Positions 16,801 to 62,301 of a stretch of 64,000 nt of DNA are shown here, in pieces. Origin of the DNA: an uncultured bacterium (GTDB lineage: Bacteria > Macinerneyibacteriota > Macinerneyibacteria > Macinerneyibacteriales > CAYRFE01); the NCBI GenBank assembly GCA_964423645.1, contig CAYRFE010000008.1, positions 37,333 to 101,332 on the forward strand, given 5' to 3'. The notes under the pieces were generated by a model, which was not told the DNA's origin, made no database searches, and saw nothing but the letters and a program-made list of their open reading frames with translations. How positions within the stretch are numbered: the stretch's first letter is position 1; every line of letters starts with the position of its first letter. A program made the position numbers and the translations under genes.

Positions 16801-16940
16801 ACAACAATCTTGGGTATATCGAGCGAAGGAAGTAATTCTACTTTCAGCATTTTCAATGAGATAGCTCCCAACAACACAATGCCGGCATAGATCATAAATG
16901 TTGTGACAGGGCGAGTAACCGAAAAGCGAGGCAAACTCAT
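13881..16940 (-). CDS. RND efflux permease (AcrB/MdtC-like), subunit 2
   Basis: FSVTRPVTT N-terminus, GLLTDNSVVVMEN TM4, RFRPILMTSLT; 1019 aa. Confidence 0.95.
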   Translation of the reverse strand: MSLPRFSVTRPVTTFMIYAGIVLLGAISLKMLKVELLPSLDIPKIVVETKAPDMPPEEVDQTITQKIESQLSTLPDVKRVTSVSTDGKSLVTVEFYWGVNMEYTMLKAREKLDMVKDDIGDAEKPNILYFDPAQAPVMQVMVEPKQGNDFLEISRFASDYLKYRIERLEGVAVCEVVGADTEEIRVLIKNRDMISYGLSFNDISRALQQNNIAASAGEIGDENFSYSLSLEKNRFSVEEIGNLSISTTVKLKDVAVIERGVKKNDEITRYNGDRGVGLFVIKSSSANTVNVCREVRKLIQEFKKESNTKDKVELSILYDDSDTILQAIANIAWSVVWGGILSFFVLFIFLHDFRTPLIIGFAMPLSIITTFVGMYFFGISFNILSLGGLAIGIGLLTDNSVVVMENIDRYREEGLTVKESIIRGATEMAPSILVGTLTTIVVFLPVLYLKGVVAVLFKEQALIITMALLASLIIALTFVPMLLYVLKMERFNAWFIQKAKKIFSWFDEMLLFVLSKYQKQLVNVLENKKKIIMITAIVFLITISMGMTIRREFVPPVKEDKFFLEYSLPTGATIDANMKYVKLIENILEEKKDVIRYHIANVGKSYSNSIAGVNTGYFLIATQSIHDVEPLKKHISDTLLASYGIEYTFYSAGSVYNQFFDFGEYDLDLMLEGDDIEQLNVLADTMRQALKKDFSWITAIEKDLELEREILELRFKDYFIASSTVPLYEVVEQLKKVTVGVKTTTIYDGSKEIDIWLKNDENTPSKQEFLERMIVVGKTEYKVGDIVELRSIKVPNELKREDQRRKVSLLCNIKGKSLEKAVIMINDTFKTLNGDKPIKLKIGGKIENMKESFSGLWFAFGLALLLVYMLIGMQFESFLQPVIIMLAVPMALIGSLTLMLLTHTSFNIMSLMGIVVATGIVVNDSILEIDTINTLMREGMPLIEAVKKGCTMRFRPILMTSLTTILGLFPLALGIGKGSELSQPLAITLIGGLMTSTALTLVVLPALFVTLMKRFSFER

Positions 16941-19484: not shown

Positions 19485-19485
19485 A

Positions 19486-22400: not shown

Positions 22401-22668
22401 ACGCACTGCCCTGTCGAGTCGTTGATGTAATTTTCTTAACACCTTTCACGGTATAGATATCTTCTTCAATGATCGACGTAATAAAACGAACAATATTTTC
22501 AGGCGATTGGTTGCCCCAAAACGCTCTTACCGTGATCTTCGGATAACTTACGTCGGGTAATTTTTCTTTTGGGATTTGATTAAATGCATACGTTCCCAAA
22601 ATCAACATGAGAACGAAGATCATCACAAACGACTTGGGACGTTTTATTGCAAGTTCAGATAAATTCAT
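19486..22668 (-). CDS. RND efflux permease (AcrB/MdtB-like), subunit 1
   Basis: LAIKRP N-terminus, GLLVDNAVV, GIVVNNAII, RVRPILITSLTT; 1060 aa. Confidence 0.95.
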   Translation of the reverse strand: MNLSELAIKRPKSFVMIFVLMLILGTYAFNQIPKEKLPDVSYPKITVRAFWGNQSPENIVRFITSIIEEDIYTVKGVKKITSTTRQGSAYIEIELERDADINFTVFLVNERVSSLKSKLPADMSPPRVEPYVPYDIGDATFFSFYLFSAAQEGGGAFDRYYLTRFAEQTLKRELSGIPGVADVVIQGGVTKELRIVYRAEAIEQYNVSFNDLILRLNNLNKKQVIGHLEDQGMRRYVTFVNDVDPSQIKNWDIGNKIQLGQVADISFVNEDPVDGIHKIDGHAAVYVVLAKSRNANALSVSKAVKEKLQEILDNQSVFGYTVADDEGKDIVKDYRHLAVQISVAVAAIFLVLFAFMRNIRSSLITMMSIFLSASIALNFLFFSKESLNMFTMSGLALAFGLLVDNAVVEYESIHKLYYKGMSIKNAIITTYREMFMPILASTLTTICVLIPFVFLQDDLKIYYIPFAKTVCVSLIVSILVSFTLIPIAFLRFHIEERKRERTSRLKMVYEKYIRFIFRFRYFVLFLILFIVGHSIYTFVTKVDRSSFTFGGGEYDPWITCFFYTEANVPDFRLKDEVTLFEGLIAGNETVDYYRTSISSYSARILVYFKEPFVRSAEAYSLREKLKIYGARKSQVSVRVSGIGPDFGGGFMGGTRYASTIYLQGYNYEKLKEFAEYQFKPAFEQFREVSNVKLGADNTDAIKKVVVRFDSEKLRVYNLDVFTVIRKISVLLRDYIQRDSIKYGNDNISFALRLEEKLSLYRLRTLHIRSGIKLGDIADILFEETNRVIRRDDQNYRYPISYEYSGQQVSQQDFEKNLNSSIAFPPGFSVVEQERFFGFGEEIDYTRIIGLLIMAIIIIYMILAALYENLLEPLIILISLPLAFVGVVWFYKIFELTFTVHAIMGSMLLAGIVVNNAIIMINHINHLRTDSDYSRVRAIISGASDRVRPILITSLTTIVGLLPIILIKNESDATANTNIWKHLSYATVGGLTTSTLFTLTFMPLFYLFFAKRDVDEPAYRDSGVWHFIRGGGPVRVGKKIYLFGKKVTSMTYARIRRHREE

Positions 22669-33115: not shown

Positions 33116-34132
33116 CTATTCGATAAGTTTGTCTTCATCGCTGCCGCGGGAAATAAAGATCTTCCCTTCTTCCTGCAGACGACGGATGATATCAAGAATT
33201 TTTTGCTGCGCCTCTTCAACATTTTTCAGACGCACCGGCCCCATATAGTCCATATCTTCTTTAATCATGGTTGAAGCCCTATCAGACATATTAATAAAAA
33301 ACTTTTCTTTCAGCGGTTCTGATGCAGCTTTCAACGCAAGGGCAAGCTCTTTGTTATCAATTTCTGTAAGTATTGCTTGTATGGATTGATTATCTAAGGC
33401 CATAATATCCTCAAACACAAACATTAATTTTTTAATTTCTTCAGCTAACTCAGGGTCTTCACGCTCAAGACCGCTCATAATAGTTTTTTCAGTCGATTGG
33501 TCGGAGCGGTTCAACATTTCAGCAACCAGTTGAATACCGCCGGCAAAGCTCATCTCACCGCTGAATGAGCTGGTGAGTTGTGTTTCCAACGCATCCTGAA
33601 TTTCTTTAATCATATCCGGTGAAATCGTATCCATACGTGCGACACGCTTGATTACTTCGACGCGTATTTCCTCAGTTAACCCGCCAAGAATGGTCGCTGC
33701 TTGCTCAGGAGTCAAAAATGCAACGATCAATGCAATCGTTTGCGGTTGTTCATTTTGTATAAAATTCAGCAATTGCTGAGGATCAACATCTTTCAGCATT
33801 TCTAACGGATTTGATTCTATTGATCGCTGTAGTCTGTTGATAATCTCAATAGCTTTTTGCGGTCCTAATGCCTTTTCAAGCATCGTACGTGCATAATCGA
33901 TACCGCCTCGAGCAATATATTCTTGAGCCAAAGAAAGCTGATAAAACTCATTGAGAATCGGTTGCAATTTTTTGGGGTTAACCGAGCGAAGTTTTGAAAC
34001 TTCTACCGACACTTTTTCAACGGTACGCTCATCAAGATGTCGCAATATTTGCGCAGCGACATCATCACCCAGAGCAATGAGCATCATCGCAGCCTTGGTT
34101 ATCCCCTTTGTTACATCAGGCTTATCCGCCAT
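33116..34132 (-). CDS. fliG: Flagellar motor switch protein FliG
   Basis: KAAMMLIALG, GGIDYARTMLEKALG, EQPQTIALI, MFVFEDI, MGPVRLKNVEEAQQKI. Confidence 0.97.
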   Translation of the reverse strand: MADKPDVTKGITKAAMMLIALGDDVAAQILRHLDERTVEKVSVEVSKLRSVNPKKLQPILNEFYQLSLAQEYIARGGIDYARTMLEKALGPQKAIEIINRLQRSIESNPLEMLKDVDPQQLLNFIQNEQPQTIALIVAFLTPEQAATILGGLTEEIRVEVIKRVARMDTISPDMIKEIQDALETQLTSSFSGEMSFAGGIQLVAEMLNRSDQSTEKTIMSGLEREDPELAEEIKKLMFVFEDIMALDNQSIQAILTEIDNKELALALKAASEPLKEKFFINMSDRASTMIKEDMDYMGPVRLKNVEEAQQKILDIIRRLQEEGKIFISRGSDEDKLIE

Positions 34133-41296: not shown

Positions 41297-42256
41297 CTAT
41301 TCGAAGTATGAATCATATATTATTTCTTTTATTTGATAGACCGTAAGGAAATCGTCCCTTTTGCAATCAAAGATCTCCAAATGCAGATGCTCTCCCTTGT
41401 TTGGTTTACGCGCATTGATACCGGTATTGCCACCTTGCCCCAAAAGGGTACCGGAGCGAACTATTTGTCCGGGCACGACGACGACATTATACATATGAAA
41501 ATAAAAATAATATCGTTCTGAAAAAGGATCGAACACAATGACACCATTGCCGCTGTGGGGGCTTAAACCGCCTGCATTTGTCGTGACATCGCTCGTCCAT
41601 TCCCGAGCAGCGGCTACTATGATTCCCGGTGTATACGAATAGATTGAAGGTCCTATCTGCTCATCTCCGAGTATTTTTGTTTCGGTAAAAAACAAATCAA
41701 GTGCCGTTTGATGCCCCTCCCGTAAACGATACGTAAGAGGGCGAAAAAACATTCCTTCATCAACAATCCGTGTAGAATAATAGTGCGGAATAGTATCAGC
41801 GCTCCATGCATAATACATACTGAATAACGCATGGTATCGTTTTCTGTTTTGAAACGCATCAGAGCGTAATACAAGGAGCTTTCTATAAAAATCGCCGTAA
41901 CTCCCTTTTTCTTGAGCGAATATGGTGCATTTTTGGCGTATGAACTCTTCAGAGGCCAACATTGCATATATGAAAACAGCGGGGGGGCATATCTGGGCTC
42001 CGACTTCTTGACGTACAACAATTCCGCGCTGAATCGCTTCATACGTCGTGAGCATCTGGTGTTCATATTCACTGTCCGATAACTTTACCATATACGAGTA
42101 TTCAAGATCGGAAAATAAAACATCCCGCTCTCGCATTACATTAATTACGACGCGCATTTCATCAGAAACGTAAGTATTTATCATGACAAAAAACGAAGCT
42201 AATACAAAAAACCATACGGTTATTTTTAAAATAATTATTTTAACATGAGCAGTCAT
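41297..42256 (-). CDS. M23 family metallopeptidase with N-terminal TM anchor
   Basis: HQTALDLF, GNGVIV, YFHM, GNTG, HLHLEI. Confidence 0.75.
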   Translation of the reverse strand: MTAHVKIIILKITVWFFVLASFFVMINTYVSDEMRVVINVMRERDVLFSDLEYSYMVKLSDSEYEHQMLTTYEAIQRGIVVRQEVGAQICPPAVFIYAMLASEEFIRQKCTIFAQEKGSYGDFYRKLLVLRSDAFQNRKRYHALFSMYYAWSADTIPHYYSTRIVDEGMFFRPLTYRLREGHQTALDLFFTETKILGDEQIGPSIYSYTPGIIVAAAREWTSDVTTNAGGLSPHSGNGVIVFDPFSERYYFYFHMYNVVVVPGQIVRSGTLLGQGGNTGINARKPNKGEHLHLEIFDCKRDDFLTVYQIKEIIYDSYFE

Positions 42257-42262
42257 ACAGAG

Positions 42263-42291
42263 AGCATAGTTTTTAAAAACGGTTTTGTCAA
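42263..42291 (-). promoter_or_regulatory. Putative promoter TTGACA-N17-TATGCT, 6 nt before ATG 42256 (leaderless geometry)
   Basis: Direct reading on the minus strand. Confidence 0.65.
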
Positions 42292-42349
42292 TTACTTCTC
42301 CCATTATTTATATTTTTTTTCATCTGTATGGCAATTCAGACTCAACAAG

Positions 42350-42979: not shown

Positions 42980-44122
42980 ATGGAAAATCGTAAAATTTTG
43001 TATATTGAAGATGATTCGTTGATCATGGAACTCTTTCGCGCCTCATTTGAACAATTTCTTCCTCATACTACTTTTTACGGTGCATCAACCGGGAAAGAAG
43101 GATTAGAAATTGCCCGTACAATTCACCCTCATCTGATAATGCTTGACATGGGGCTCCCCGATATGGCGGGTATTGATATTTTGATCGAACTAAAAAAAGA
43201 TCCTCACTTTACGGCTACACCCGTTATCGTCGTAACCGGCAGTACTGACTCTGACGATAAAATGGCGGCTCTGGAAAACGGAGCGATTGATTTCTTGAGT
43301 AAGCCCTGCAATATTCGAGAACTTATTGCTCGGATCACACTGCATTTACGGCAGATCGACTACATACAAAAAATAGAAGAAAAAAACGCCCAATTGGAAG
43401 AGGATCTTGAAGCGGGAAGAAAAATTCAATTTAAACTGTTGCCCCCTAAGCAAAGAGAGATCGGGCCGTTCACCTTCAACGGTTTTCTCTTCCCCTCGAT
43501 GCACTTAAGCGGAGATTTTTTAGATTATTTTCCAATTGATGAACGTTATACCGGTTTTTATATTGCAGATGTTTCAGGACACGGCGTATCATCTGCATTT
43601 GTAACGGTCTTTTTGAAAAGCTTTGTACAAAATGCCCTTGAGCAGTACCATGGAGGCGTCGAGAAAGATATTATTAATCCCGATAAATTGTGTTCAAAAC
43701 TTAACAGGAATCTGCTGGATGAACGTCTCGGTAAATATATGACCGCTTTTTATGCTGTTATGGATTCCCAGACAAACACATTGACCTACACCATAGCAGG
43801 TCAATATCCGTTTCCTATTATCACTCACATGGGTTCTACTCGATATCTTTCCGGCACGAATGTTCCATTAGGCTTGTTCCCGCAATCAGAATATAGTGCC
43901 GAAACTATTTCATTGGATGATATACATGAAATAATTCTCATATCTGACGGTGTTCTCGAGATACTTCCTCACCCTACTTTACGTGAAAAACAAAGTTTTT
44001 TATTGAACATCACACAAAAGACTGATATAACCATTGATAGCTTGGTTGAAGCATTCGGCTTACAAGAAAGAACCTCGTTACCGGATGATATAACGTTTTT
44101 ACTTGTCCAAAGGAGGAAATGA
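42980..44122 (+). CDS. Response regulator receiver fused to SpoIIE/PP2C phosphatase (RssB/RsbU-like)
   Basis: Receiver (EDD, LDMGLPD, KP), coiled coil, ADVSGHG, SDG, DDIT. Confidence 0.92.
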   Translation: MENRKILYIEDDSLIMELFRASFEQFLPHTTFYGASTGKEGLEIARTIHPHLIMLDMGLPDMAGIDILIELKKDPHFTATPVIVVTGSTDSDDKMAALENGAIDFLSKPCNIRELIARITLHLRQIDYIQKIEEKNAQLEEDLEAGRKIQFKLLPPKQREIGPFTFNGFLFPSMHLSGDFLDYFPIDERYTGFYIADVSGHGVSSAFVTVFLKSFVQNALEQYHGGVEKDIINPDKLCSKLNRNLLDERLGKYMTAFYAVMDSQTNTLTYTIAGQYPFPIITHMGSTRYLSGTNVPLGLFPQSEYSAETISLDDIHEIILISDGVLEILPHPTLREKQSFLLNITQKTDITIDSLVEAFGLQERTSLPDDITFLLVQRRK

Positions 44123-44617
44123 ATGAATCCCGGAAAAATTGTATATGCGCAACATAACAGTATGTATATTATTAAAATGATTGGCACAATAAAATACACA
44201 CTGAGTTCTGATTTCGATGTTTTTATTGAGAAAATATTTCACTCTAAAAATTTTTCTAGCATTGTCATTGATATGAGCGAGACAGAATACATCGACAGCA
44301 CCAATTTGGGATTACTCGCAAAGATTGCCAACTATATGTTTGAGCATTTTCATCAAAAGGTCACTATTATCTCTACCAATGATGATGTCTGCGCAATCCT
44401 GCATAGCGTAGGCTTTACCAAAATTTTTTCGATTATTGAGAAACCGTTAAGCTGTGCCGTGAAAATGAATGATCTTGAACCAACTCAAGCCGGAAGCGAA
44501 TATCTTGGAAAAGTATTACTCGAGGCTCATGAATTTCTGGCCGGAATTGATGCTCATAATAACGAGGTTTTTAAAAACGTGATCGATGTACTCAAAAAAA
44601 ATCAAACCGGTGTATAA
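44123..44617 (+). CDS. STAS-domain anti-anti-sigma-like protein (RssC-like)
   Basis: IDMSETEYIDSTNLGLLAKI with a phosphorylatable Ser; C-terminal EAHEFL..ID..N. Confidence 0.85.
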   Translation: MNPGKIVYAQHNSMYIIKMIGTIKYTLSSDFDVFIEKIFHSKNFSSIVIDMSETEYIDSTNLGLLAKIANYMFEHFHQKVTIISTNDDVCAILHSVGFTKIFSIIEKPLSCAVKMNDLEPTQAGSEYLGKVLLEAHEFLAGIDAHNNEVFKNVIDVLKKNQTGV

Positions 44618-44644
44618 ATCAATCTCATGAACACAGGAGAATAT

Positions 44645-45121
44645 ATGAAAAATATTATCAGTATCATATGCTTTGTTATACTGACACACACATTGTGTGC
44701 GCAATCGGTCAACAAAGGAAATCTTATTTTTATTCACACTGAACGTGATACCAACACGCTGAAAAGTAATGATACGCTCGCGACCGATATGTTTTACATC
44801 ATTGATGGAGATGAATCAAAAGGCGAAGTTATCCTTACATTCAATCTTACCGAAAATTACAAAGAAGCATATCTGATTGTAAATATCCCGGACAGAGAAT
44901 GGGCAGAAACCAATGACGGATTTGATATATTCTTAAAGGACAAAAAAGTAGCGTCGATCTCATCCGCCGCACGAAACAGTTGGCTTGAGATTAAACTCGA
45001 CCATACCCTGTTACCGGCTTCAGGAACGGTTGAATTTACACTACGATCAATAAAAAATGACGGATTATACATCTGTTCCAAGAAAAGCGGGAAGGGCGCC
45101 GTTTTAAAAGTCGTTCAATAA
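44645..45121 (+). CDS. Exported beta-rich hypothetical protein
   Basis: Signal peptide ending LCA-Q; SD ACAGGAG. Confidence 0.6.
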   Translation: MKNIISIICFVILTHTLCAQSVNKGNLIFIHTERDTNTLKSNDTLATDMFYIIDGDESKGEVILTFNLTENYKEAYLIVNIPDREWAETNDGFDIFLKDKKVASISSAARNSWLEIKLDHTLLPASGTVEFTLRSIKNDGLYICSKKSGKGAVLKVVQ

Positions 45122-52990: not shown

Positions 52991-53518
52991 TTAAAACTCA
53001 ATCCCCTCGCGCGCCTGGAGTTTTTCGGTTTCATAATAATGCTTTATTTCTTTCATTTCGGTCACCAGATCCGCAATATCGCACAATTTTTCGTGCGCAT
53101 ATCTGCCGGTCACGACCACCTCTGTATGAGGTTGGCGCGCCGCAATGGCATGTAGCAATGCTTCAACACTGAAAAGCTCAAAATATACGGCAATATTTGC
53201 TTCATCGAGAATAACAATATCATATGCTCCCGAAGCCAGAATACCTGTTACTTCGTCAAGACCGACACGTGCGCTGTCAATATCTTCCTGAACCGGTTTC
53301 CCGTGTATGAAACACCCGCGACCGTATTGCTTGATCGTCACAAAGTCACTGAGAAATTTGCGGATACTATCCAATTCCGCGTAATGCATACCTTTCACAA
53401 ATTGTGCAATATAAACCTTGTATCCGCGACCTGCCGCACGAAGTGCTAATCCGAAGGCGGCCGTTGTCTTACCTTTTCCGTTACCGGTATACACCTGTAT
53501 GCGTCCGTTAATCGTCAT
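52991..53518 (-). CDS. cobO: Cob(I)yrinic acid a,c-diamide adenosyltransferase (CobO/BtuR type)
   Basis: YTGNGKGKTTAAFG.ALRA.G, QFVKG, ILDE, VTGR, AREGIEF. Confidence 0.93.
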   Translation of the reverse strand: MTINGRIQVYTGNGKGKTTAAFGLALRAAGRGYKVYIAQFVKGMHYAELDSIRKFLSDFVTIKQYGRGCFIHGKPVQEDIDSARVGLDEVTGILASGAYDIVILDEANIAVYFELFSVEALLHAIAARQPHTEVVVTGRYAHEKLCDIADLVTEMKEIKHYYETEKLQAREGIEF

Positions 53519-54044
53519 ATCGTACACCTCGTTGTTTCAATGTTCGGCTGACCCATACCGCAATGACCGCCTTAAGAATATCCCCCGGTAAAAACACAAG
53601 CATAAACGGTGTCAACATGGCAGAATAACTCATGGGTTTATGTACCACGCTTCGCAACAAAACATTCGCATAAGGGATTCCTATAGCATAAATTATAACC
53701 GTGCCTATGATTACGATCGTCGTATCGTATAAAAATGACGACTCTTTTTTCAGAAGAAAACCGACGACTAAGGAAGATACAACAAAACCAATGATGTACC
53801 CGAAGGAAAGTTTGAGAATATATGCGATCCCGCCGCCGTCTGAAAAAACCGGCACACCCGCAAGACCAATCGCTACATACAATAAAACCGGAATCCACCC
53901 CTTTTTACCCAATAATAATGCCGAGAACATGACAAAAAATGTTTGAAGCGTAAAACTCAACTCACCGAGTTTGAACTTCAACGGTGCCGTAATGATCAAC
54001 AATGCAATAATAAGCGCGGAAACTGTTATCATGCGAACCTTCAT
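53508..54044 (-). CDS. bioY: Biotin transporter BioY
   Basis: FTLQT, YVAIGLAGVPVFS.GG, GYIIGF, PGDILK. Confidence 0.93.
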   Translation of the reverse strand: MKVRMITVSALIIALLIITAPLKFKLGELSFTLQTFFVMFSALLLGKKGWIPVLLYVAIGLAGVPVFSDGGGIAYILKLSFGYIIGFVVSSLVVGFLLKKESSFLYDTTIVIIGTVIIYAIGIPYANVLLRSVVHKPMSYSAMLTPFMLVFLPGDILKAVIAVWVSRTLKQRGVRYDD

Positions 54045-54047
54045 ACC

Positions 54048-54668
54048 TCATCCCTTCTTAATATATACCACATGTCTTTTTGAGGTCTTTGATCGACGAA
54101 AGCTGAATAAACTTTCATCACATATGGTACAGCGAGGATTAACAGTGATTTTTTCTCGCAGAACACCTGCTTTTTCAGCCAAAAATATATTCATCCCAAT
54201 GAGATCGGCATACAAGCCTGCTTCGCGTTGAATAAAAAACCGATGAAGTTCTGATTGAAACCGGTCAATAATGTCCTTTCCGATTTCATAACAACACGAA
54301 CGAGCAGATGGTGAAAAATAGACAGAGAGACGTGAAGGGTCTATCCCATGCGAAAAAAAAAGAGCGATACCTTCAGACAGTATCGCAGATGCAGTGCCCT
54401 TCCAGCCCGCATGTAGCACCATGACAAGTTCTTGATTATCGTCCCATAGAACAATGCCGTTGCAATCTGCAGTTCGAACGGTCAGACACACATTGGCTCT
54501 ATCGGTAAACAGTCCGTCCCCGTCGCCATAAAATCCCGGACTTGGGGCATAACAAATATGATTTCCATGAATTTGATGACAATATGCCGCATCGGGAAAA
54601 TGTGCTGCGACATCTTCCCGCTCCGGATAACTGTTCGTCGTCCAACCGAAATACGGCTTATTCACCAT
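54048..54668 (-). CDS. pgeF: Peptidoglycan editing factor PgeF (YfiH family)
   Basis: QIHG, DGLFT, TADCNGI, HAGWKGT, CCYEIG, CT.C...LFSFRR. Confidence 0.92.
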   Translation of the reverse strand: MVNKPYFGWTTNSYPEREDVAAHFPDAAYCHQIHGNHICYAPSPGFYGDGDGLFTDRANVCLTVRTADCNGIVLWDDNQELVMVLHAGWKGTASAILSEGIALFFSHGIDPSRLSVYFSPSARSCCYEIGKDIIDRFQSELHRFFIQREAGLYADLIGMNIFLAEKAGVLREKITVNPRCTICDESLFSFRRSKTSKRHVVYIKKG

Positions 54669-57600
54669 ACTTCGGCCAGCAACACGTCTTATATTTCTTT
54701 CCGCTCCCGCACGGGCACGGATCATTACGTCCAACCTTAACATTCTTTTTGATCGGTTGACGCTTAATTCCTTTACCGTCCCCCGAATTTCCCGCAGTAG
54801 TATAAATGAGATCTTTTGTATCATCCTGTTGTTGTTCAGCTTTTTCAATGACCAAATGAAACAGATCTCGTATTACTTGTTTGCGTATCATCGCCTCAAG
54901 TTCATGGAACATTTCATACGATTCTTTTTTATACTCAAACAAAGGATCTTTCTGTGCATACGCACGAAGATTAATACCTTCCATAAGATTATCGATCGCA
55001 TATAAATGCTCCCGCCAGTTCCTATCGATCGCCGATAACATGATGATACGTTGTACATCACGCATGATATCAGCACCGACCTGTCGATCGCGTGATTGCG
55101 CAAGTTTTTCGACTTCTTGATTGACATAGGCGTTCAGTGCGTCACGATCAGCACACTTCGTTAACGAATCAATATCAATAAAAAGACCGAAGTATTCAAG
55201 TGCAAAAGTTTTTAAGCCTTCCAAATCCCAATCCATCGGACGAAGATCCTGCGGACAGAACATGTCAACGCCTTCTTCGACAACCTCAGCGATCATGTCG
55301 GTCAATTGCTCTTCCAAAAGATCGTTTGATGCGATATGCACTTCTTCGCCTTCTGTCTCGATCATAGAGTGTTTTTCAAGAAGTGGAAACAATACACGTT
55401 CAAAACCTTTTTCGAATGCATTCGTGCGAAACGCGTCATATGATGCAAATCGAGTTTTATCGGTCGTCGCTGCAATAAATTCGCTGAGATAAACGGCTTC
55501 AAGAACTGAATTACGACGATCATAGATCGAGAAACGTTGTTTATTCATTACATCGTCATATTCAAGTGTGTGTTTACGAATCTGGAAATGATGATGTTCA
55601 ACACGTTTTTGCGCATTCTCGATTTGACGTGAAATAAGCGGATGCTGAATCGCTTCCCCGTCTTCCATTTTAAGACGATCAAGTATCCCTATTATTCTGT
55701 CAGAACCGAAAAGACGCATGAGGTTGTCTTCAAGTGAGACAAAGAACCGTGATGCACCCGGGTCACCCTGTCGACCGGAACGACCTCGCAACTGACGATC
55801 GATGCGTCGACTTTCATGACGCTCTGTACCGATTACATATAATCCGCACGGAACGTCGCGTTTACATTCACGCACATCAACGCCGGCTTCTACGGCAACA
55901 CCTTCTTCAGATGCCACCAATGCACACGATACACAGCGCTTCACGCCGGCTCCGAGTTTAATATCGGTTCCGCGACCGGCCATATTGGTCGCAATAGTGA
56001 TCGATCCCTTTTGCCCTGCTCGTGCGACGATCTCGGCTTCTTTTTGATGATTCTTCGCATTTAAGACCTCAGCGATCAGTCCTTTACGAGTAAGCATACG
56101 TGCTAACAACTCAGAATCTTCGACCGATACTGTGCCGACCAGTACAGGTTGCCCTCGTTGATTTACACGATGGATCTCATCAATGACCGCATTGAATTTT
56201 TCTTTTTTGGTTTTATAGATCACATCATCGTAATCCATACGACGAACAGGTCTGTTAGTTGGTACAACAAGTACATCCATCTTATAGATTTCTTTGAATT
56301 CGCCTGCCTCAGTTACGGCAGTTCCCGTCATACCTGATATCTTTTTATACATTCTGAAAAAGTTTTGCAACGTAATCGTCGCAAACGTCTGGGTATCGCC
56401 TTCGATCTGAACATTCTCTTTCGCCTCAAGCGCATTATGCAACCCGTCAGAAAAGCGACGTCCCGGCATCAAACGTCCGGTAAATTCATCAACGATCAAA
56501 ACCTTATTCTCCTGCACCACATAATCAACATCTTTCTCGAAGAGCGAATATGCCCGCAAAAGCTGTGATAACGCATGAAGTATTTCATTCTTTTCGCTGT
56601 AATCCCGTTGGACTTTACGTTTGAGATTCTCACGTTCTGTCTCATCCTGGGTCTCTTCTAAAATACGTGCGAATTCATCACCGATATCGGTCAATTCAAA
56701 TAACTTCGGATTTTCGGGTGATAAAAGTTTGCGCCCGTTTTCTGCCAAATCGGCAACATGTCGTTTTTCATCGATCACATAATACAACTCTTCTTCAAGC
56801 TCATGCACGCGTTTGTCACGAATATATACCAACTCCATGTCATTCATAAGACGCTGGATCTTTGTTTCCTGACGTAATTTCATCAACTGCTTGTGCGTGG
56901 GAAGACCTTTATAGGCGATAAGAAATTTTATGGCCGCAGTGTCAAAATCACCTGACTCGTATGCTTCTTGTCCTTCACGAACAAGTTTTGATACCAATTC
57001 TCGTTGATGATCAAGTAATCGACGTACTTTCGGATTTAACTCGCGAAAATAACGATTGCTTTGCGATTGAACCGGTCCCGAAATGATAAGCGGTGTACGG
57101 GCTTCATCGATGAGGATCGAGTCGACTTCATCGATAATTGCAAATTCACGATATTTCTGCACTTGCTCTCGCAGATTCCCCACCATATTATCTCTCAAAT
57201 AATCAAAACCGAATTCGGAATTCGTACCATATACAATATCATTCTGATACACACTTTTTCGTGCTTCGGTATCCATACCGCCCTGCAAACAACCGACGGT
57301 CACTCCCAACGTTGTATATAAAAGCCCCATCCACTGACTATCACGAAGTGCCAAATAATCATTGACGGTAACAACATGTACTTGCCCGTTCAGTGCATTG
57401 AGATAGGCAGGCATGGTCGCAACCAGTGTTTTTCCTTCACCGGTCGCCATTTCTGATATTTTCCCGCTGTGGATGACTATTCCGCCGATAAGCTGTACAT
57501 CAAACGGCACCATTTCCCACGGCATTTGATGACCGGTCACATTCGCGAGAATTTTATTCTCTTTCAAGTAATATGCAACACGCTTTACAAGACCGAATGC

Positions 57601-57801
57601 CTCGGGTAACAATTCGTCCGTTGTTTCGCCTTTACGTAAACGTGCGCGGAACTCCTCGGTTTTTCGTTTGAAATCGTCGGGTGTGTGCACTTCTTGCAAA
57701 AACCGTTCGAAATTTTGATTGATCCCGTCAACATGCGAAAACAATTTCTTTACTGTTCGTTCTTGATAACTGCCGAAAATCTTTGTTAAAAAACCTAACA
57801 T
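54658..57801 (-). CDS. secA: Protein translocase subunit SecA
   Basis: MATGEGKTL, DEVDSILIDEARTPLIISG, ATNMAGRGTDI, GTERHESRRIDRQLRGRSGRQGDPG, SEC-C GRNDPCPCGSGKKYKTCC. Confidence 0.99.
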   Translation of the reverse strand: MLGFLTKIFGSYQERTVKKLFSHVDGINQNFERFLQEVHTPDDFKRKTEEFRARLRKGETTDELLPEAFGLVKRVAYYLKENKILANVTGHQMPWEMVPFDVQLIGGIVIHSGKISEMATGEGKTLVATMPAYLNALNGQVHVVTVNDYLALRDSQWMGLLYTTLGVTVGCLQGGMDTEARKSVYQNDIVYGTNSEFGFDYLRDNMVGNLREQVQKYREFAIIDEVDSILIDEARTPLIISGPVQSQSNRYFRELNPKVRRLLDHQRELVSKLVREGQEAYESGDFDTAAIKFLIAYKGLPTHKQLMKLRQETKIQRLMNDMELVYIRDKRVHELEEELYYVIDEKRHVADLAENGRKLLSPENPKLFELTDIGDEFARILEETQDETERENLKRKVQRDYSEKNEILHALSQLLRAYSLFEKDVDYVVQENKVLIVDEFTGRLMPGRRFSDGLHNALEAKENVQIEGDTQTFATITLQNFFRMYKKISGMTGTAVTEAGEFKEIYKMDVLVVPTNRPVRRMDYDDVIYKTKKEKFNAVIDEIHRVNQRGQPVLVGTVSVEDSELLARMLTRKGLIAEVLNAKNHQKEAEIVARAGQKGSITIATNMAGRGTDIKLGAGVKRCVSCALVASEEGVAVEAGVDVRECKRDVPCGLYVIGTERHESRRIDRQLRGRSGRQGDPGASRFFVSLEDNLMRLFGSDRIIGILDRLKMEDGEAIQHPLISRQIENAQKRVEHHHFQIRKHTLEYDDVMNKQRFSIYDRRNSVLEAVYLSEFIAATTDKTRFASYDAFRTNAFEKGFERVLFPLLEKHSMIETEGEEVHIASNDLLEEQLTDMIAEVVEEGVDMFCPQDLRPMDWDLEGLKTFALEYFGLFIDIDSLTKCADRDALNAYVNQEVEKLAQSRDRQVGADIMRDVQRIIMLSAIDRNWREHLYAIDNLMEGINLRAYAQKDPLFEYKKESYEMFHELEAMIRKQVIRDLFHLVIEKAEQQQDDTKDLIYTTAGNSGDGKGIKRQPIKKNVKVGRNDPCPCGSGKKYKTCCWPKYGE

Positions 57802-57806
57802 ACTTA

Positions 57807-58748
57807 TTACCCCCGTAATACTTTTAACGGATCAATTGCCTGATCGTTTATGCGTACCTCAAAGTGAAGATGTGCGCCGGTAACCCTTCCGGTTGCACCG
57901 ACATATCCTATTATGTCTCCTTTGACAACTTGCTGTCCGGTAGAAACCGTAAAGCCCTGCATGTGCGCATACCTCGTCGACACCGATGCGTTGTGATTAA
58001 TGATAATTACATTTCCATATTCGGTCATTACGCCTGCATATTCGACAAAACCGCTTTCAGCGGCAAAAATAGGAGTTCCCAAAGGACCGGCGAAATCGAG
58101 CCCTGTATGCGACGCCCCCATCCCATTGATCGGATCCCACCGAGACCCGAAATAAGAAGTAATTCGTGTGCCCGTGGGGTGAATAAACTCAAGACCGCCC
58201 AAAAAGTAAAAAATGCTGTTTTGTTCCTCTTTGGTCAAGATCGCATCAAATGTATTCAACTGTGCAAATATCCCCCCCGCCAATTCACTCATTACCCGCT
58301 CATCATCTTGTTCAAGCAAACGACGCGTATAGTCACTCATGGATATCGTTGGTTTATTACCTGCGCCTTGTTCATCGGGTATTTTATATAATCGTGTGAT
58401 CCGGTTTATCTTTCCATGGAGTGCCGCAATATCATTATTCACGCGTTTTTCCCAGTTGATAAAGGTGTATTTGTGATTACGATACTTTTGGTATACATTC
58501 TCCATTTCATTACGCAACTGTAAGTTTTGTTTCTTGGTTGTTTGAAATTGACTGTATACCGGCGCATAATCACGATTCATATCACTGTAATTCCAAAAAA
58601 ACACACCAATCGTAAGAAGGGCAATAAACAACGTCATTGATGCAACCGCCATAATCACCTTGAACAGTTTTCGGGACACCGTAAACTTACGAATTTCTTC
58701 GGTATCATCGGAAACAATGAGAATATGATAACGTTTTCTGTCACTCAT
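57807..58748 (-). CDS. M23 family metallopeptidase (TM plus coiled coil)
   Basis: HTGLD, YAHM, HLHFEV. Confidence 0.93.
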   Translation of the reverse strand: MSDRKRYHILIVSDDTEEIRKFTVSRKLFKVIMAVASMTLFIALLTIGVFFWNYSDMNRDYAPVYSQFQTTKKQNLQLRNEMENVYQKYRNHKYTFINWEKRVNNDIAALHGKINRITRLYKIPDEQGAGNKPTISMSDYTRRLLEQDDERVMSELAGGIFAQLNTFDAILTKEEQNSIFYFLGGLEFIHPTGTRITSYFGSRWDPINGMGASHTGLDFAGPLGTPIFAAESGFVEYAGVMTEYGNVIIINHNASVSTRYAHMQGFTVSTGQQVVKGDIIGYVGATGRVTGAHLHFEVRINDQAIDPLKVLRG

Positions 58749-59688
58749 TAAGGTACGTGAACCTCCGCATCATCGTATTTTCTTCAGGAAGAAGATATTT
58801 CGCAGGATTATCGGGTTGTCCGTTTCGTATTACTTCATAATGCAAGTGAACTCCGGTTGATTTACCCGTACTACCCATATATCCTATTGTTTGCCCCTTT
58901 TTGACGTTTATTCCGGCTTTGATCTTGGGGTGTATTTTTTCCAAATGACCGTACCGTGTCTCATATCCGTATCCATGCTCGATCACAATCATGATACCAT
59001 ACACGCTTCTTGCTCCGGCAAATGCGACAAAACCATTCGCGGTCGCAACGATCGGAGTTTCTGGAAGATTGGAAATATCCAATCCGGTATGATACTCCTG
59101 CCCGCTGCCGAACGGCGATTCTCTCCACCCGAATCCCGAGGATACCCATCCCTCGGCAGGCCAAATAGTAGGTACTCGTTCCCATTTTTTCACATTTTGA
59201 TCCATGACCTCGTACACTTTATTGAAGCTTGAATTAAGTGAGTTCATCTTCAGTTCGATTTGAGAGAACAACACATCCATGTCACCCGTAATTTCTTCTT
59301 CGTTTGTTTTTTTGATCGTCTCTGCATCATCAAGAGAAAAACCACCGACATTCAATCCCTTTACCGTAGTAAATACGGGGGGCAGCGCATTCAACATCAG
59401 CACATTATCGCATAACTCCTCGAGTTTTAAAAAACCGGCATCATATTTTACAATTTTTTCCTTCAATACCGCATAATGAATTTTAAGATACTCATTCCTT
59501 TTTGTAAGGACAATATTTTCCGTTTTTAAATATGCCGTATGTGCAAAAGAGAAAAAATTGATGAGTGCGCCGGCAAAAACAAAAAGAAAGGCTGCGATGA
59601 TACCGATTGCAGTTAAGGCGTTCATGTTGAACTCGATATAACGTCGGTTTCCCGGTAAGGTAATTTTACATTTTACGTTTTTACGCAT
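58741..59688 (-). CDS. M23 family metallopeptidase (TM plus coiled coil)
   Basis: HTGLD, YGHL, HLHYEV. Confidence 0.93.
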   Translation of the reverse strand: MRKNVKCKITLPGNRRYIEFNMNALTAIGIIAAFLFVFAGALINFFSFAHTAYLKTENIVLTKRNEYLKIHYAVLKEKIVKYDAGFLKLEELCDNVLMLNALPPVFTTVKGLNVGGFSLDDAETIKKTNEEEITGDMDVLFSQIELKMNSLNSSFNKVYEVMDQNVKKWERVPTIWPAEGWVSSGFGWRESPFGSGQEYHTGLDISNLPETPIVATANGFVAFAGARSVYGIMIVIEHGYGYETRYGHLEKIHPKIKAGINVKKGQTIGYMGSTGKSTGVHLHYEVIRNGQPDNPAKYLLPEENTMMRRFTYLNE

Positions 59689-59698
59689 CCTCCACCTC

Positions 59699-60361
59699 CT
59701 ATTTGTGTTGCACGGAATAATTATCCATGATCACAATGCCGCCATCCGAGTCAGTATATACTTTAAGATAAGGGAACGGATCGTCAACTACTCCTCCGTC
59801 TTTTTCGTATAAATATAACACTTTTTTTACATACTCCATTGTTTCACGATAGGGAGGGATCCCGTTGAATCGTGTGACCGCCTCCGGTCCTGCATTATAT
59901 GCTGCCAAGGCAAGCGAATAATTATTATTATATAATCGCAAAAGCTGTTTGAAATATCGCACGCCTCCGGTAACATTTTCCTCAGGATCAAACGGATTTT
60001 TCACACCAAGTGATGCCGCCGTCGAAGGCATCAATTGCATGAGTCCCATCGCACCGACACGAGAAATTGCAAACGGGAAAAACCGAGATTCGACGGTAAT
60101 GATCGCTTTAATCATTTTTACATCAACATTTTCACGGGTGCATACGCGGTGAATAACACTCATGACATCATCAGATTTTTCCGCTGACAATATGATTTTG
60201 GTATCTTTTGGTTTTTTTTCATCGGTACTTTTAATAAAAACACTACTCGTCACGTTCGAGTGTAAAACAGTACTGTCATCTTTTTTTTGAATAATGAACT
60301 CAGCACGCGCAACTGCCGTAAAACAGATCACGCATGTGAGAAAAAATATGGTTCGCGCCAT
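59699..60361 (-). CDS. Lytic transglycosylase (SLT domain)
   Basis: AIITVES, SRVGAMGLMQLMP.TA, ALAAYNAG, ET..YV.KV. Confidence 0.94.
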   Translation of the reverse strand: MARTIFFLTCVICFTAVARAEFIIQKKDDSTVLHSNVTSSVFIKSTDEKKPKDTKIILSAEKSDDVMSVIHRVCTRENVDVKMIKAIITVESRFFPFAISRVGAMGLMQLMPSTAASLGVKNPFDPEENVTGGVRYFKQLLRLYNNNYSLALAAYNAGPEAVTRFNGIPPYRETMEYVKKVLYLYEKDGGVVDDPFPYLKVYTDSDGGIVIMDNYSVQHK

Positions 60362-60376
60362 TATCGCCCCGATTCC

Positions 60377-62170
60377 TCAGGGATTCCCGGTGTGAAGCTT
60401 TTTAAGATCTGTCTCGAATACCCTGACAAGACCTTTCATATCAGCCACAACCAACTCGGAACCGACAAAAAACGGAGTTGCATATATCTTATCACTCATT
60501 TGAGCTTTCCAAAGAATTGTGCCGTTCGACGCATCAAGTGCATAGACATACGTATCATAACTTGCAATATATGCGACACCATCAGCAACTATGACACCGC
60601 TCATGACCTCGGCATTCGCTTTAAACGTCCAGCGCACTGCACCGTTTTTCGCATCAAGCACATGCACAGTACCGTCATCACACCCGAAATATACCGATGC
60701 ATCATCCGCAGTGATCTTTCCGTTGATCCCTTTCGGCGCTACAAACGACCATAATTCATTTCCCGTGGCTGAATCCAATGCCACGAGCGACCCGTTCGAT
60801 GTGCCTGCAAACACGGTCGTGCCGGAAACTGCAGATGTCGCATACACCGAACTGCGGAATTGTTTACGCCATATAATCTTTCCCGTCAAACTATCGATCG
60901 CATATAATGATTTATCGAGAGACCCTGCGAAAAGAGTCGTACCGGATAACACCGGCGTTCCCCAAATCACACCTTTTGTCGGCACACGCCACGCCTGTTC
61001 TCCGGTATCTTTATTGAATGCATAAATATAACTGTCTGTGGAACCGGTGAATACCAGGGTATCATTCATCACCGAGCCGGCGACAATCTTTTTCCCGGTT
61101 TTACCGCGCCAGATAATCGAGCCGTCAAGAAGCGAAAGTTTGTATTCAATCCCTTTATACGTCCCGATATACACACCGGTCAGATCAACGGCAGGGGTTC
61201 CACCCATTTCATATGCCATGTCGGCAGTCCAAACTTCTTCATGTGTCAGCATATTGATCGCACGTACTTTTGAATCTTTTGCGGCAACATAAAGCACGCC
61301 GTTGAATACAATAGGCGAAGATGTAATACTTGCGTAGGTCTTTTCCCATGATGTGCGAGGATTCAACGGTAATTTGCCTTCTAATTTTTTGATATATTCA
61401 CTATTTTTGCTTTTTTGCACAATTGGATCGTTCACCGGTTTCTTGGTCGGGTCATCCGGCAAGGGGATACCCGGATCGGCGAACAACAAACGGTAGATAC
61501 CGTACACGATCGCAGCGATAACCGCTAAAACCAAACCCATACGCACCAATGCAATCCCTGAAGATTTTTGCGTTGCATTCACTCGTACAGCCATAACCAT
61601 CACCTTATCATCGTTTGTACGCTCAAGTGTTTTTTTGAGCAATTCCTGTGCCGCCACACTCTCTTCGTATTCGCATAATATATCGGTTAATTCTCGTACA
61701 TCAAGTGCCTCGGGCACTTCGCGAGAACAAAAGACCAGTCTATCGCCGCCCATAACGGGATATTCTCCAAACACCACATCCCCGTCACCCTCAGTGACCG
61801 CAGTGTCAGGATCATTGAGATAACGAAGTTCTTCCTTGCGCATCAACAAGACGGACATATCCGTGTGCATCGCAAAATACAACATCCGATTATGCGCAAC
61901 GGCAAGAATAAAACCTCCGAGAAGATTCCCGTCAACAATAGCTTTTTTAAGTGCCATACGCGGCTTGAGTGTCTCGGCGTTCTCATAGTAGATATCAAGC
62001 ACATCGTTGATATTGTTGCCGTCTTCGGCGACGGTTTGTGTGACACCGAAAAGATGTCCGCATGTTTTGACTTCATGAGATTTCCGCGCCGGAAGATACC
62101 AGAAATGCTTTCTTCCGATATCCTCTTTAAAACACGACGCTTCACCGATAGTAAAAGGTATTTGCGGCAT
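60377..62170 (-). CDS. Degenerate PP2C-like domain, TM helix and PQQ-like beta-propeller
   Basis: GDRLVFCSRE...DDKVMVMAV PP2C-like C-terminal half; TM GLVLAVIAAIVYGIY; about 8 PQQ repeats (A.D..TG...W.F). Confidence 0.8.
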   Translation of the reverse strand: MPQIPFTIGEASCFKEDIGRKHFWYLPARKSHEVKTCGHLFGVTQTVAEDGNNINDVLDIYYENAETLKPRMALKKAIVDGNLLGGFILAVAHNRMLYFAMHTDMSVLLMRKEELRYLNDPDTAVTEGDGDVVFGEYPVMGGDRLVFCSREVPEALDVRELTDILCEYEESVAAQELLKKTLERTNDDKVMVMAVRVNATQKSSGIALVRMGLVLAVIAAIVYGIYRLLFADPGIPLPDDPTKKPVNDPIVQKSKNSEYIKKLEGKLPLNPRTSWEKTYASITSSPIVFNGVLYVAAKDSKVRAINMLTHEEVWTADMAYEMGGTPAVDLTGVYIGTYKGIEYKLSLLDGSIIWRGKTGKKIVAGSVMNDTLVFTGSTDSYIYAFNKDTGEQAWRVPTKGVIWGTPVLSGTTLFAGSLDKSLYAIDSLTGKIIWRKQFRSSVYATSAVSGTTVFAGTSNGSLVALDSATGNELWSFVAPKGINGKITADDASVYFGCDDGTVHVLDAKNGAVRWTFKANAEVMSGVIVADGVAYIASYDTYVYALDASNGTILWKAQMSDKIYATPFFVGSELVVADMKGLVRVFETDLKKLHTGNP

Positions 62171-62301
62171 GGTACCTCCCATTTTCCTGCCGATAAGTAT
62201 ACCTTCGTCTGACCATTTTGCAAGTATTATTTCACCTAAACGCTTTATTCACGCAAAATTAGCCGATTAATCATGCACATACACCACGCTCGAGCACAGT
62301 A

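Follow-up and report, generated by a model that had tools for sequence, protein, structure and literature searches.

FtsEX-EnvC-amidase, NlpI-MepS, DipM-SdpA/B and Csd1-Csd2-Csd7 are systems in which non-catalytic or pseudo-enzyme organisers control M23/LytM proteins and lytic transglycosylases. We know of no PP2C fold or propeller in any of them. Tandem M23 genes, as at the locus described here, occur in H. pylori. PstP of Mycobacterium tuberculosis acts in cell-wall growth control; its outer domain is not a propeller, and the neighbours of its gene are kinase, FHA and rodA-pbpA genes, not hydrolases. The C-terminal domain of E. coli RssB is a PP2C without catalysis that serves as a protein-binding adaptor module. 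It has been described as a PP2C-type pseudophosphatase (Dorich et al. 2019, PMC6546054), and TAB1 and PHLPP2 are eukaryotic PP2C pseudophosphatases (PMC12002173). PQQ propellers are found in AfsK-like Ser/Thr-kinase-TM-PQQ-propeller receptors (PMC1262709) and in BamB (YfgL), a periplasmic protein-docking scaffold.

Gene X, from a window of 64 kb (the whole stretch of DNA analysed), directly precedes genes for a lytic transglycosylase (SLT) and two M23 endopeptidases (M23a and M23b), and shares features with several of these proteins. PstP (PDB 1TXO and 2CM1) likewise has a cytoplasmic PP2C-fold domain, a single TM helix and an extracytoplasmic domain, and ranks high among the structure and profile matches of the X N-domain, but PstP is an active Mn2+ phosphatase with its flap and a full set of metal-binding Asp residues. 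RssB resembles X in its non-catalytic bacterial PP2C-fold domain, whereas it is soluble and receiver-fused, delivers sigma-S to ClpXP and has no membrane anchor, propeller or link to the wall; no specific sequence relationship between RssB and X was found. TAB1 and PHLPP2 share the PP2C fold and a diverged metal site and act as binding or regulatory subunits, but are eukaryotic and soluble and have unrelated partners. AfsK-like receptors (PDB 7EQ5 and 7DXN) provide the closest natural propeller sequences and also combine a cytoplasmic signalling-type domain with a TM helix and a PQQ-like propeller; unlike X, they carry an active Hanks kinase in the cytoplasm, no PP2C fold, and no conserved hydrolase neighbourhood. 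BamB has an eight-bladed PQQ-like propeller, and X matches Pfam PQQ_2, but BamB carries a lipobox and is a lipoprotein of the outer membrane, while an internal TM helix is predicted to anchor X in the inner membrane. Compared with FtsEX-EnvC-amidase and its kin, the X block has no ABC ATPase. EnvC, Csd2 and DipM contain a degenerate M23 domain, whereas both M23a and M23b keep all zinc ligands, which does not fit the Csd1/Csd2-type pair (one partner without zinc ligands) mentioned in the initial annotation.

Results

Six tightly packed genes (X, SLT, M23a, M23b, secA and pgeF) run on the minus strand from 62170 to 54048, with spacings of 15, 10, -8, 5 and -11 nt, negative values being overlaps. 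This agrees with the earlier description of six co-directional genes with gaps of at most 15 nt, although the array does not end with them: it continues past pgeF through bioY (53508-54044, minus strand), which follows after 3 nt, and cobO/btuR (52991-53527, minus strand), which overlaps bioY by 20 nt. Both ORFs were assigned by tblastn and by the domains of their orthologs (PF02632 and PF02572, respectively). The co-directional tight array thus reaches down to 52991 and is followed by a 256-nt gap and by exbB, which has a strong promoter-like site to itself (52792-52764; 11/12 matches in a consensus scan).

Gene X (60377-62170, minus strand) encodes 597 aa. Its start was placed at ATG 62170, which is the same start residue in every ortholog, and was preferred over the first ATG of the ORF (62182) because a GGAGG ribosome-binding site, read from the sequence at 62175..62179 (minus strand), lies 4 nt before it. 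A promoter-like site, TTGCAA-16-TATACT (62196..62223, minus strand), is located in the 131-nt divergent intergenic region common to X and a GT2 glycosyltransferase gene; taken alone, its 9/12 match in the consensus scan is a weak indication of a promoter of X.

X is confidently predicted to be a bitopic inner-membrane protein, consisting of a cytoplasmic domain of ~200 aa, a single TM helix and an extracytoplasmic propeller. The cytoplasmic PP2C-fold domain (residues 1-200; 61571..62170, minus strand) is followed by a hydrophobic stretch, MGLVLAVIAAIVYGIY, which represents the TM helix (residues ~206-229; 61484..61555, minus strand); it was predicted to be helical even by single-sequence AF2, and its hydrophobicity, not its sequence, is kept across clades. 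A linker of ~45 residues joins it to the PQQ/BamB-like beta-propeller (residues ~273-597; 60380..61354, minus strand; Pfam PF13570, 8e-57; PQQ_2, 4e-42), in which eight repeats of the type (Y/V)A(L/I)Dxx(T/N)Gxx(L/I)W were counted by eye. PDB relatives of the propeller are kinase-linked PQQ propellers and BamB. An identity as BamB was rejected, as X scores below the cut-offs of TIGR03300 (163.2 vs 285.2) and NF008351 (119 vs 423), has no lipobox, and begins with a 200-residue cytoplasmic domain rather than a lipoprotein signal peptide; so was that of a PQQ-dependent dehydrogenase (TIGR03075, 96.8 vs cut-off 480; TIGR03074, 44.6 vs 833). X has one inner-membrane helix and lends no support to the "trans-envelope" character that had been proposed, or to a reach as far as the outer membrane.

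Assignment of the N-domain to the PPM/PP2C fold is based on profile and structure comparison, not on Pfam, as no PP2C, PP2C_2 or SpoIIE model matches it even at E = 10. Searched against 177,635 PDB sequences, the family profile of X had a sole match, the PP2C tPphA (E 0.056), aligned in register at motifs 8-11, and hhalign of the family with PstP and tPphA gave 82% probability and E 1e-5 over residues 93-194, i.e., the C-terminal half only. The AF2 model, built from 8 sequences, reached a pLDDT of 85.6 and a pTM of 0.84, and all of its best 50 Foldseek matches in the PDB were PPM/PP2C structures (E 5e-11 to 5e-7, probability 1.00, TMq 0.55-0.67). No match was found between the N-domain and the SpoIIE-type domain encoded in the same 64-kb window. 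Together, profile, hhalign, AF2 and Foldseek firmly indicate a PPM/PP2C fold, as the initial annotation had predicted.

In the hhalign alignment, C148-S149-R150-E151 of X lie opposite C189-S190-D191-G192 of PstP, and D188-K189 opposite D229-N230. The earlier reading of the CSDG and DN motifs as CSRE and DK was therefore right, although D188, the metal-binding Asp of the second motif, is retained and the Asn alone is changed. Across the family, the position of the SDG Asp (PstP D191, R150 in X) is occupied by R, A, N or E, and that of the DN Asp by D in X and its close relatives, by E in two clades and by S in two further clades. The missing DGxGG motif and the deleted flap are more telling losses than CSRE and DK. 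No Asp-Gly follows strand 3, where PstP has D38/G39 (bridging Asp and Gly carbonyl), in 11 of 11 aligned members; the position aligned to the DGxGG Asp is Q/E/A/T/S in the family and E45 in the closest relatives of X, with low confidence in this N-terminal half of the alignment, although DGxGG is missing throughout the segment. Opposite PstP ~135-170, 27 flap residues are absent from X (hhalign), and the N-domain comprises 200 residues vs about 235 for PP2C. For the RxxNED Asp (PstP D25), the uncertain N-terminal alignment allows three registers, at D17 (D/E/T across clades), the invariant H22 or V34; none yields an Asp conserved family-wide, and one leaves an acidic residue in four of the five clades.

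Degeneracy of the motifs is itself conserved in that the catalytic Asp residues are not regained in the orthologs, and ligand-equivalent positions are even less conserved family-wide, differing between clades at 17 (D/E/T), 104 (D/T/G/Y/E/H/R), 150 (R/A/N/E) and 188 (D/E/S). No canonical metal ligand conserved across all five clades was found. These alignments support the view of the N-domain as an inactive-looking PP2C without flap, DGxGG motif and SDG Asp. Family-specific invariant residues (E10, E16, K21-H22-F23, Y61, D163, E167-Y168 and E176) are mostly placed in the N-terminal strand-loop region and in two C-terminal helices. Compared with the nearest relative, the N-domain is 91% identical and the propeller 77%, and the N-domain has a dN of 0.064 and a dN/dS of about 0.04. 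It is thus under strong purifying selection despite the lost catalytic motifs.

SLT (59699-60361, minus strand, 220 aa) encodes a secreted family-1 lytic transglycosylase (Pfam SLT, PF01464, 3.9e-28) with an N-terminal signal peptide; the catalytic E-S motif, VES(R/K/Q/N)F, is kept, and the catalytic Glu is invariant in the ortholog alignment. M23a (58741-59688, minus strand, 315 aa; Pfam M23, 5.6e-30) and M23b (57807-58748, minus strand, 313 aa; Pfam M23, 1.5e-33) share a layout of short cytoplasmic tail, TM helix, coiled-coil-like linker and M23 domain, the M23 domains being 42% identical, and the last 8 nt of M23a are shared with the start of M23b. The zinc ligands and the catalytic His are contained in HTGLD, YGH and HLH in M23a and in HTGLD, YAH and HLH in M23b. 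Retention of HxxxD and HxH, already described for this pair, extends to the orthologs (n = 9 each), in which all three motifs of each protein are conserved, and M23a and M23b can with confidence be predicted to be membrane-anchored, catalytically intact M23 endopeptidases.

The secA product (54658-57801, minus strand, 1047 aa) has the expected features of a canonical preprotein translocase ATPase, scoring 991.6 bits with NF009538 (cut-off 814) and containing the Pfam DEAD, PP-bind, P-loop, wing/scaffold and SEC-C domains with the SEC-C zinc motif. The pgeF/yfiH-family gene (54048-54668, minus strand, 206 aa) encodes a Cu-oxidase_4 fold (Pfam PF02578, 1.5e-39, score 136 vs 22.9), falls just under the cut-off of TIGR00726 (126.5 vs 141.15) and, with its start picked from ortholog lengths, shares its first 11 nt with secA. 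Linkage of M23 and secA had been regarded as already described, for which no support was found in the literature searched.

All members of the X family come from Candidatus Mcinerneyibacteriota, an uncultured phylum, in which they fall into five clades. The order X-SLT-M23a-M23b-secA-pgeF is kept in all five and in every locus long enough, and the anticipated linkage of X to SLT-M23-M23 was seen in every relative found. X is always the first gene of the block with SLT, M23a and M23b, while its upstream context varies between four different arrangements. Overlaps of 4-14 nt between X and SLT in three clades, and of 8-11 nt between M23a and M23b in all, strongly suggest that the block is translationally coupled. 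In most loci, bioY, cobO and exbB-exbD-exbD-tonB plus an aminotransferase gene are collinear as well. SecA identity within the phylum is 62-68%, and function can be deduced only weakly from gene order alone because the phylum is small and moderately diverged and unrelated genes are also syntenic. That secA, pgeF, bioY, cobO and exbBD-tonB accompany the block seems to reflect gene order retained within a small phylum, not a pathway.

Discussion

Fold, lost motifs and linkage support the earlier view of X as a catalytically dead PP2C-TM-propeller protein at the head of a cluster of wall hydrolases. Phosphoprotein binding by the N-domain and a functional link to Sec export, which the same view included, gained no support from the analysis. 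Since X always directly precedes three wall-cutting enzymes, it is probably their organiser or regulator. In its specific form, as a bitopic pseudo-phosphatase adaptor restricted to Candidatus Mcinerneyibacteriota by which the SLT and M23 hydrolases are organised or gated, we regard this role as having about an even chance of being correct.

Alternatively, X may be functionally unrelated to its neighbours, the gene order being merely preserved in a small, shallow phylum. That a single phylum supplies all X members, and that bioY, cobO, exbB-exbD-exbD-tonB and the aminotransferase gene are likewise collinear in most loci, would fit such a historical linkage. Yet X, SLT, M23a and M23b are never separated despite the four rearrangements directly upstream of X, they are still together in M. 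aminivorans, which is rearranged downstream of pgeF or cobO, and the start/stop overlaps of X/SLT and M23a/M23b persist at 35% protein identity, which makes a purely historical linkage unlikely. Equally improbable, in our estimate, is that X is a receptor rather than a scaffold, with a propeller that senses a periplasmic cue (muropeptides, or an unfolded or outer-membrane protein) and a dead PP2C that sequesters or releases a cytoplasmic phosphoprotein; the adjoining hydrolases would be at most the regulated output. In its favor, the propellers closest to that of X are those of Ser/Thr-kinase-TM-PQQ and OmpR-like-TM-PQQ receptors, RssB offers a precedent for a dead PP2C as a binding module, and a receiver-SpoIIE phosphatase gene in the window is followed by one for a STAS protein, which suggests that this organism has Ser phospho-signalling. 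One candidate for the phosphoprotein would be a phospho-STAS partner-switching protein like that encoded at 42980-44617. No intact phosphate-binding pocket can be shown in the N-domain, however, and the invariable translational coupling to SLT/M23 suggests stoichiometric co-production, not signalling.

The N-domain has several invariant acidic residues and one invariant His, D188 aligns with the DN aspartate, and E45 of the closest relatives occupies the DGxGG Asp position in the low-confidence alignment, so that it could be envisaged as a phosphatase or another type of hydrolase whose metal site has been rebuilt (invariant E10, E16, H22 and D143, plus D188 in this clade). As none of the canonical ligand positions is kept in all five clades, the flap is missing, the SDG Asp is replaced by R/A/N/E and PP2C Pfam matches are lacking even at E = 10, we consider residual catalysis very unlikely.

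If X is an organiser, the SLT and M23 enzymes would dock onto its propeller and be held or gated there, on the outer side of the inner membrane. Its dead PP2C domain would serve for binding and not as an enzyme, and may connect the docked hydrolases with a partner in the cytoplasm, which would direct wall cleavage to the right place and time. Under this adaptor model, secA, pgeF, bioY and cobO would be co-transcribed housekeeping passengers outside the X machine. The partner of the N-domain could be a protein of division or elongation, or a phosphoprotein such as a phosphorylated STAS; other candidates are the conserved cytoplasmic tails of M23a and M23b. Conserved short N-terminal tails may be general to such M23 proteins and unrelated to X. 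At this locus, the tails match the catalytic domains in their degree of conservation, and that of M23b (KRYHILIVSDDTEEIRKF) shows 50% pairwise identity vs 26% for the linker.

Gene array and its borders

The minus strand carries six consecutive, co-directional ORFs from 62170 to 54048, with successive spacings of 15, 10, -8, 5, and -11 nt. The first encodes X (60377-62170; 597 aa), in which the last 320 residues form a PQQ/BamB-like beta-propeller (PF13570, 8e-57; PQQ_2, 4e-42). It is followed by the lytic transglycosylase SLT (59699-60361; 220 aa; Pfam, 3.9e-28), the peptidases M23a (58741-59688; 315 aa; Pfam, 5.6e-30) and M23b (57807-58748; 313 aa; Pfam, 1.5e-33), secA (54658-57801), and pgeF (54048-54668), which encodes a PgeF/YfiH-family protein (Pfam/NCBIfam). 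The secA product is a canonical SecA (NF009538, 992 bits vs. a cut-off of 814); as it lies above the cut-off of the canonical model, a SecA2-type accessory translocase was rejected. X starts at the ATG at 62170, with GGAGG just before it, and its start residue is identical in all orthologs.

The tight array extends past pgeF to bioY (3-nt gap) and cobO (20-nt overlap), after which a gap of 256 nt holds a strong promoter-like site for exbB. On the other side, X and a divergently oriented GT2 glycosyltransferase gene are separated by 131 nt with a weak promoter-like site. Scanning the whole window against Rfam and for tRNAs gave no matches, and the sequence of the locus is present in DNA metagenome runs only.

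Distribution and synteny

Among 185,579 species, each represented by a single genome, seven X loci were found, two of which are titled Candidatus Mcinerneyibacteriota and Ca. Mcinerneyibacterium aminivorans, while one is labelled Bacillota. This last locus (L012, DSCS01000064.1, titled “Bacillota bacterium”) contains the X-SLT-M23-M23-secA block with a SecA 66% identical to that of the window, and is probably a mislabelled Mcinerneyibacteriota genome. Only five further full-length or N-terminal copies were found among 241 million metagenome records, all belonging to one known clade. N-domain identity among the five clades (ortholog groups of X) is 29-37%.

The initial annotation had placed X at the head of a wall-hydrolase/secA operon, and this linkage recurs in relatives, as the order and orientation X-SLT-M23a-M23b-secA-pgeF are kept in every locus of sufficient length. 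Upstream of X, four contexts occur: a divergent GT2 gene, a co-directional ffh...rplS-rnhB group, a divergent gene for a pterin-binding enzyme, and a divergent TPR gene. The genes beyond pgeF-cobO also differ in M. aminivorans. Overlapping reading frames are found between M23a and M23b in every clade (8-11 nt) and between X and SLT in three clades (4-14 nt). In the Ca. Mcinerneyibacterium aminivorans locus (L005/L016, 14345-17470), the stored calls give only an 83-aa SEC-C fragment where tblastn matches secA over 1048 aa without interruption; the fault lies in the gene calling of the public record, and the gene is not broken.

The wall hydrolases

SLT retains its catalytic Glu-Ser motif and begins with a cleavable signal peptide. 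A flagellar lytic transglycosylase was rejected, as the NF047373 match covers the SLT domain only (77 bits vs. a cut-off of 234) and fliG is 26 kb off. Both ends of mature SLT (59699-60361, minus strand; ortholog loci L001-L014) carry conserved strand-like segments outside the SLT domain, one following the signal peptide, (A/G)E(I/L/F)(I/L/V)I, and one near the C-terminus, ...G.(V/I/L/S)(I/V)(I/T).(D/N)(N/E/K).(Y/F); these could be docking elements.

M23a and M23b are built alike: a short tail in the cytoplasm is followed by a TM helix, ~120-130 linker residues, and the M23 domain, which is 42% identical between the two. HxxxD, the catalytic His, and HxH are present in both proteins in all nine orthologs examined; a Csd1/Csd2-type pair of one active and one inactive M23 was rejected because both are intact. 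The tails are about as conserved among clades as the catalytic domains (loci L001-L014): mean pairwise identity in M23b is 50% in the tail, 26% in the linker, and 15% in the TM helix, and the M23a tail reaches 40%. The M23b tail follows the pattern (K/R)(R/K)YH(I/V)(I/L)I..(E/D)(D/E)T.EI(R/K)(R/K)(F/Y). Such conservation hints at a cytoplasmic contact, but M23 proteins of other phyla have similar tails, and the hint is therefore not specific to X. A third M23-like protein, divergent and 335 aa long (41297-42304, minus strand; Pfam, 1.7e-7), has an N-terminal TM helix and still contains HxxxD (HQTALD) and HxH (HLHLE).

Fold of the N-terminal domain

As a single sequence, the N-domain of X (residues 1-200) found nothing useful in Pfam at E = 10 or in the PDB (phmmer). 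A word-indexed homolog search with the sequence or an alignment also gave no matches, although full-length proteins, identical and 88% identical, are present in that collection. Five related clusters, all of ~600 aa and with the architecture of X, were recovered when 1.8 billion representative proteins were searched exhaustively with HMMER. Eight N-domain sequences were aligned (A3), and this alignment is the basis of the profile, hhalign, and AF2 comparisons.

Against all PDB sequences, the A3 profile matched only tPphA variants (a PP2C phosphatase; E 0.056), aligned in register from the GDR..CSDG motif through the C-terminal strand. hhalign of A3 against PstP and tPphA gave 82% probability (E 1e-5, residues 93-194). 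The AF2 model built with A3 reached a pLDDT of 85.6 and a pTM of 0.84, compared with a pLDDT of 39 from the single sequence. All 50 of the top 50 Foldseek matches to this model in the PDB were PPM/PP2C phosphatases, including PppA, tPphA, PstP, MspP, SpoIIE, Stp1, PPM1K, and HAB1 (E down to 5e-11, probability 1.00, TM 0.55-0.67). The PP2C fold proposed in the initial annotation is thus borne out by three independent lines, namely the PDB profile, hhalign, and the predicted structure.

Topology and propeller

X has no signal peptide and one hydrophobic helix at ~206-229, predicted even without an alignment. This topology would make the PP2C-like domain cytoplasmic and put the propeller on the outer side of the inner membrane. 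The helix is joined to the propeller by ~45 linker residues of low conservation; in the propeller, eight repeats of the type (Y/V)A(L/I)Dxx(T/N)Gxx(L/I)W were counted by eye. Among natural proteins, the propeller is most closely related to the sensor propellers found in membrane Ser/Thr kinases and, next, to BamB. X was rejected both as a BamB ortholog, scoring far below the equivalog cut-offs and having no lipobox, and as a PQQ dehydrogenase, again with a score far below the cut-offs.

The window encodes exbB-exbD-tonB and an outer-membrane efflux protein, which indicate a diderm organism. In the minus-strand stretches 13881-22668 and 33116-34132, two RND (AcrB-type) transporter genes flank an outer-membrane efflux gene, with fliG farther on, which makes the organism diderm and probably flagellated.

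Catalytic residues and constraint

The metal-binding motifs of X had been read as degenerate, CSRE and DK. In the reliable C-terminal half of the hhalign alignment, C148-S149-R150-E151 stand opposite C189-S190-D191-G192 of PstP and D188-K189 opposite D229-N230, so the motif reading is right, but in DK the metal-binding Asp is retained and only the Asn is changed. D104 lies opposite the third-metal ligand D118, and the flap is short by 27 residues. Over the five clades, position 150 is R/A/N/E, position 188 D/E/S, and position 104 D/T/G/Y/E/H/R. The DGxGG motif after strand 3 is absent from every family member aligned. The register at RxxNED is uncertain, the Asp falling on D17 (D/E/T among clades), the invariant H22, or V34 depending on the alignment, and none of these registers gives a conserved Asp.

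Conserved in the family are G9, E10, E16, G19, K21, H22, F23, G38, F41, Y61, F87, R111, G135, D143, D163, L165, E167, Y168, E176, and L177. Part of this set is PP2C structural heritage: GD(R), the Arg that follows GDSR, and the Leu in helix 6. The remaining residues are family-specific and sit in the N-terminal strand-loop region and two C-terminal helices. Identity to the nearest relative is 91% in the N-domain vs. 77% in the propeller, and the N-domain has a dN of 0.064 and a dN/dS of ~0.04, a rough ratio as dS is saturated. The N-domain is under strong purifying selection, and on sequence grounds is a maintained, functional PP2C-fold domain that very probably has ceased to act as a metal-dependent phosphatase. 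A residual or remodelled enzyme, to which the Asp retained in DK might belong, appears very unlikely.

Proposed function

The best-supported model, to which we give about an even chance, is that X is a bitopic adaptor linking the cytoplasm to the SLT/M23 hydrolases. In this model, SLT, M23a, and M23b would be docked or gated by the propeller on the outer side of the inner membrane, and the dead PP2C domain would tie this assembly to a cytoplasmic partner. More tentatively, X may be the organiser of a phylum-specific wall-remodelling machine resembling FtsEX-EnvC without the ATPase. The dead PP2C would then read a cytoplasmic state (that of a phosphoprotein, of a protein involved in division or elongation, or of the conserved M23 tails) and pass it through the membrane to the propeller, which would switch SLT and the two M23 endopeptidases on or off. 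Two further ideas of the initial annotation, phosphoprotein binding by the pseudo-PP2C and a coupling to Sec export, are speculative.

It is rather unlikely that X is instead a periplasmic sensor signalling by sequestration of a phosphoprotein. Mere conservation of gene order is a similarly improbable account of the linkage. In its favor, SecA identity among clades is still 62-68%, and most loci also keep bioY, cobO, and exbBD-tonB collinear, so part of the conservation reflects shallow divergence. For the X-SLT-M23-M23 core this weakens a functional interpretation less than it does for secA, pgeF, bioY, and cobO.

Relation to known systems

How bacteria control their own wall-cutting enzymes is an open question. 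To our knowledge, only a handful of wall-hydrolase regulators are known (FtsEX-EnvC, NlpI, DipM), systems akin to the role proposed for X, and the PP2C-fold pseudo-enzymes of bacteria are almost unexplored, RssB being the main example. If the organiser reading were true, X would be the first bacterial pseudophosphatase we know of that controls peptidoglycan hydrolysis. PstP is nearest to X in layout (PP2C, TM helix, outer domain), but X fails the catalytic-residue tests. The likeness to RssB, with its dead PP2C domain (PMC6546054), and to eukaryotic TAB1 and PHLPP2 (PMC12002173) is one of concept. The propeller, in turn, is like the ones in kinase-PQQ receptors (PMC1262709; PDB 7EQ5) and in BamB.

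No description of a PP2C-TM-propeller protein, nor of an M23-secA or SLT-M23-secA operon, was found in literature searches. In X a membrane anchor joins a dead phosphatase fold to a propeller, and the X gene is hard-wired to three hydrolases in a compact four-gene module open to heterologous expression. An interaction with the hydrolases, if true, would constitute a new coupling of the cytoplasm to wall cleavage and would open envelope biology in this uncultured phylum to functional study for the first time. If there is none, X is still a well-documented domain architecture, which is real and lineage-specific.

A SpoIIE-type phosphatase in the window

A 497-aa ORF at 8408-9901 (minus strand) is without a Pfam match at 1e-5. 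At 42980-45121 (plus strand), the gene for a response-regulator receiver fused to a SpoIIE-type PP2C phosphatase (380 aa) directly abuts that for a STAS protein (164 aa; 0-nt gap), and a secreted-looking protein of 164 aa that matches nothing in Pfam comes next. The arrangement resembles a partner-switching module, and the adjoining phosphatase and STAS genes indicate that phospho-Ser partner switching and canonical PP2C signalling exist in this genome. As hhalign gave no match between this SpoIIE-type PP2C and the N-domain, X is not a recent duplicate of that gene; by sequence comparison, its N-domain is nearer to the PstP/tPphA type than to the SpoIIE type.
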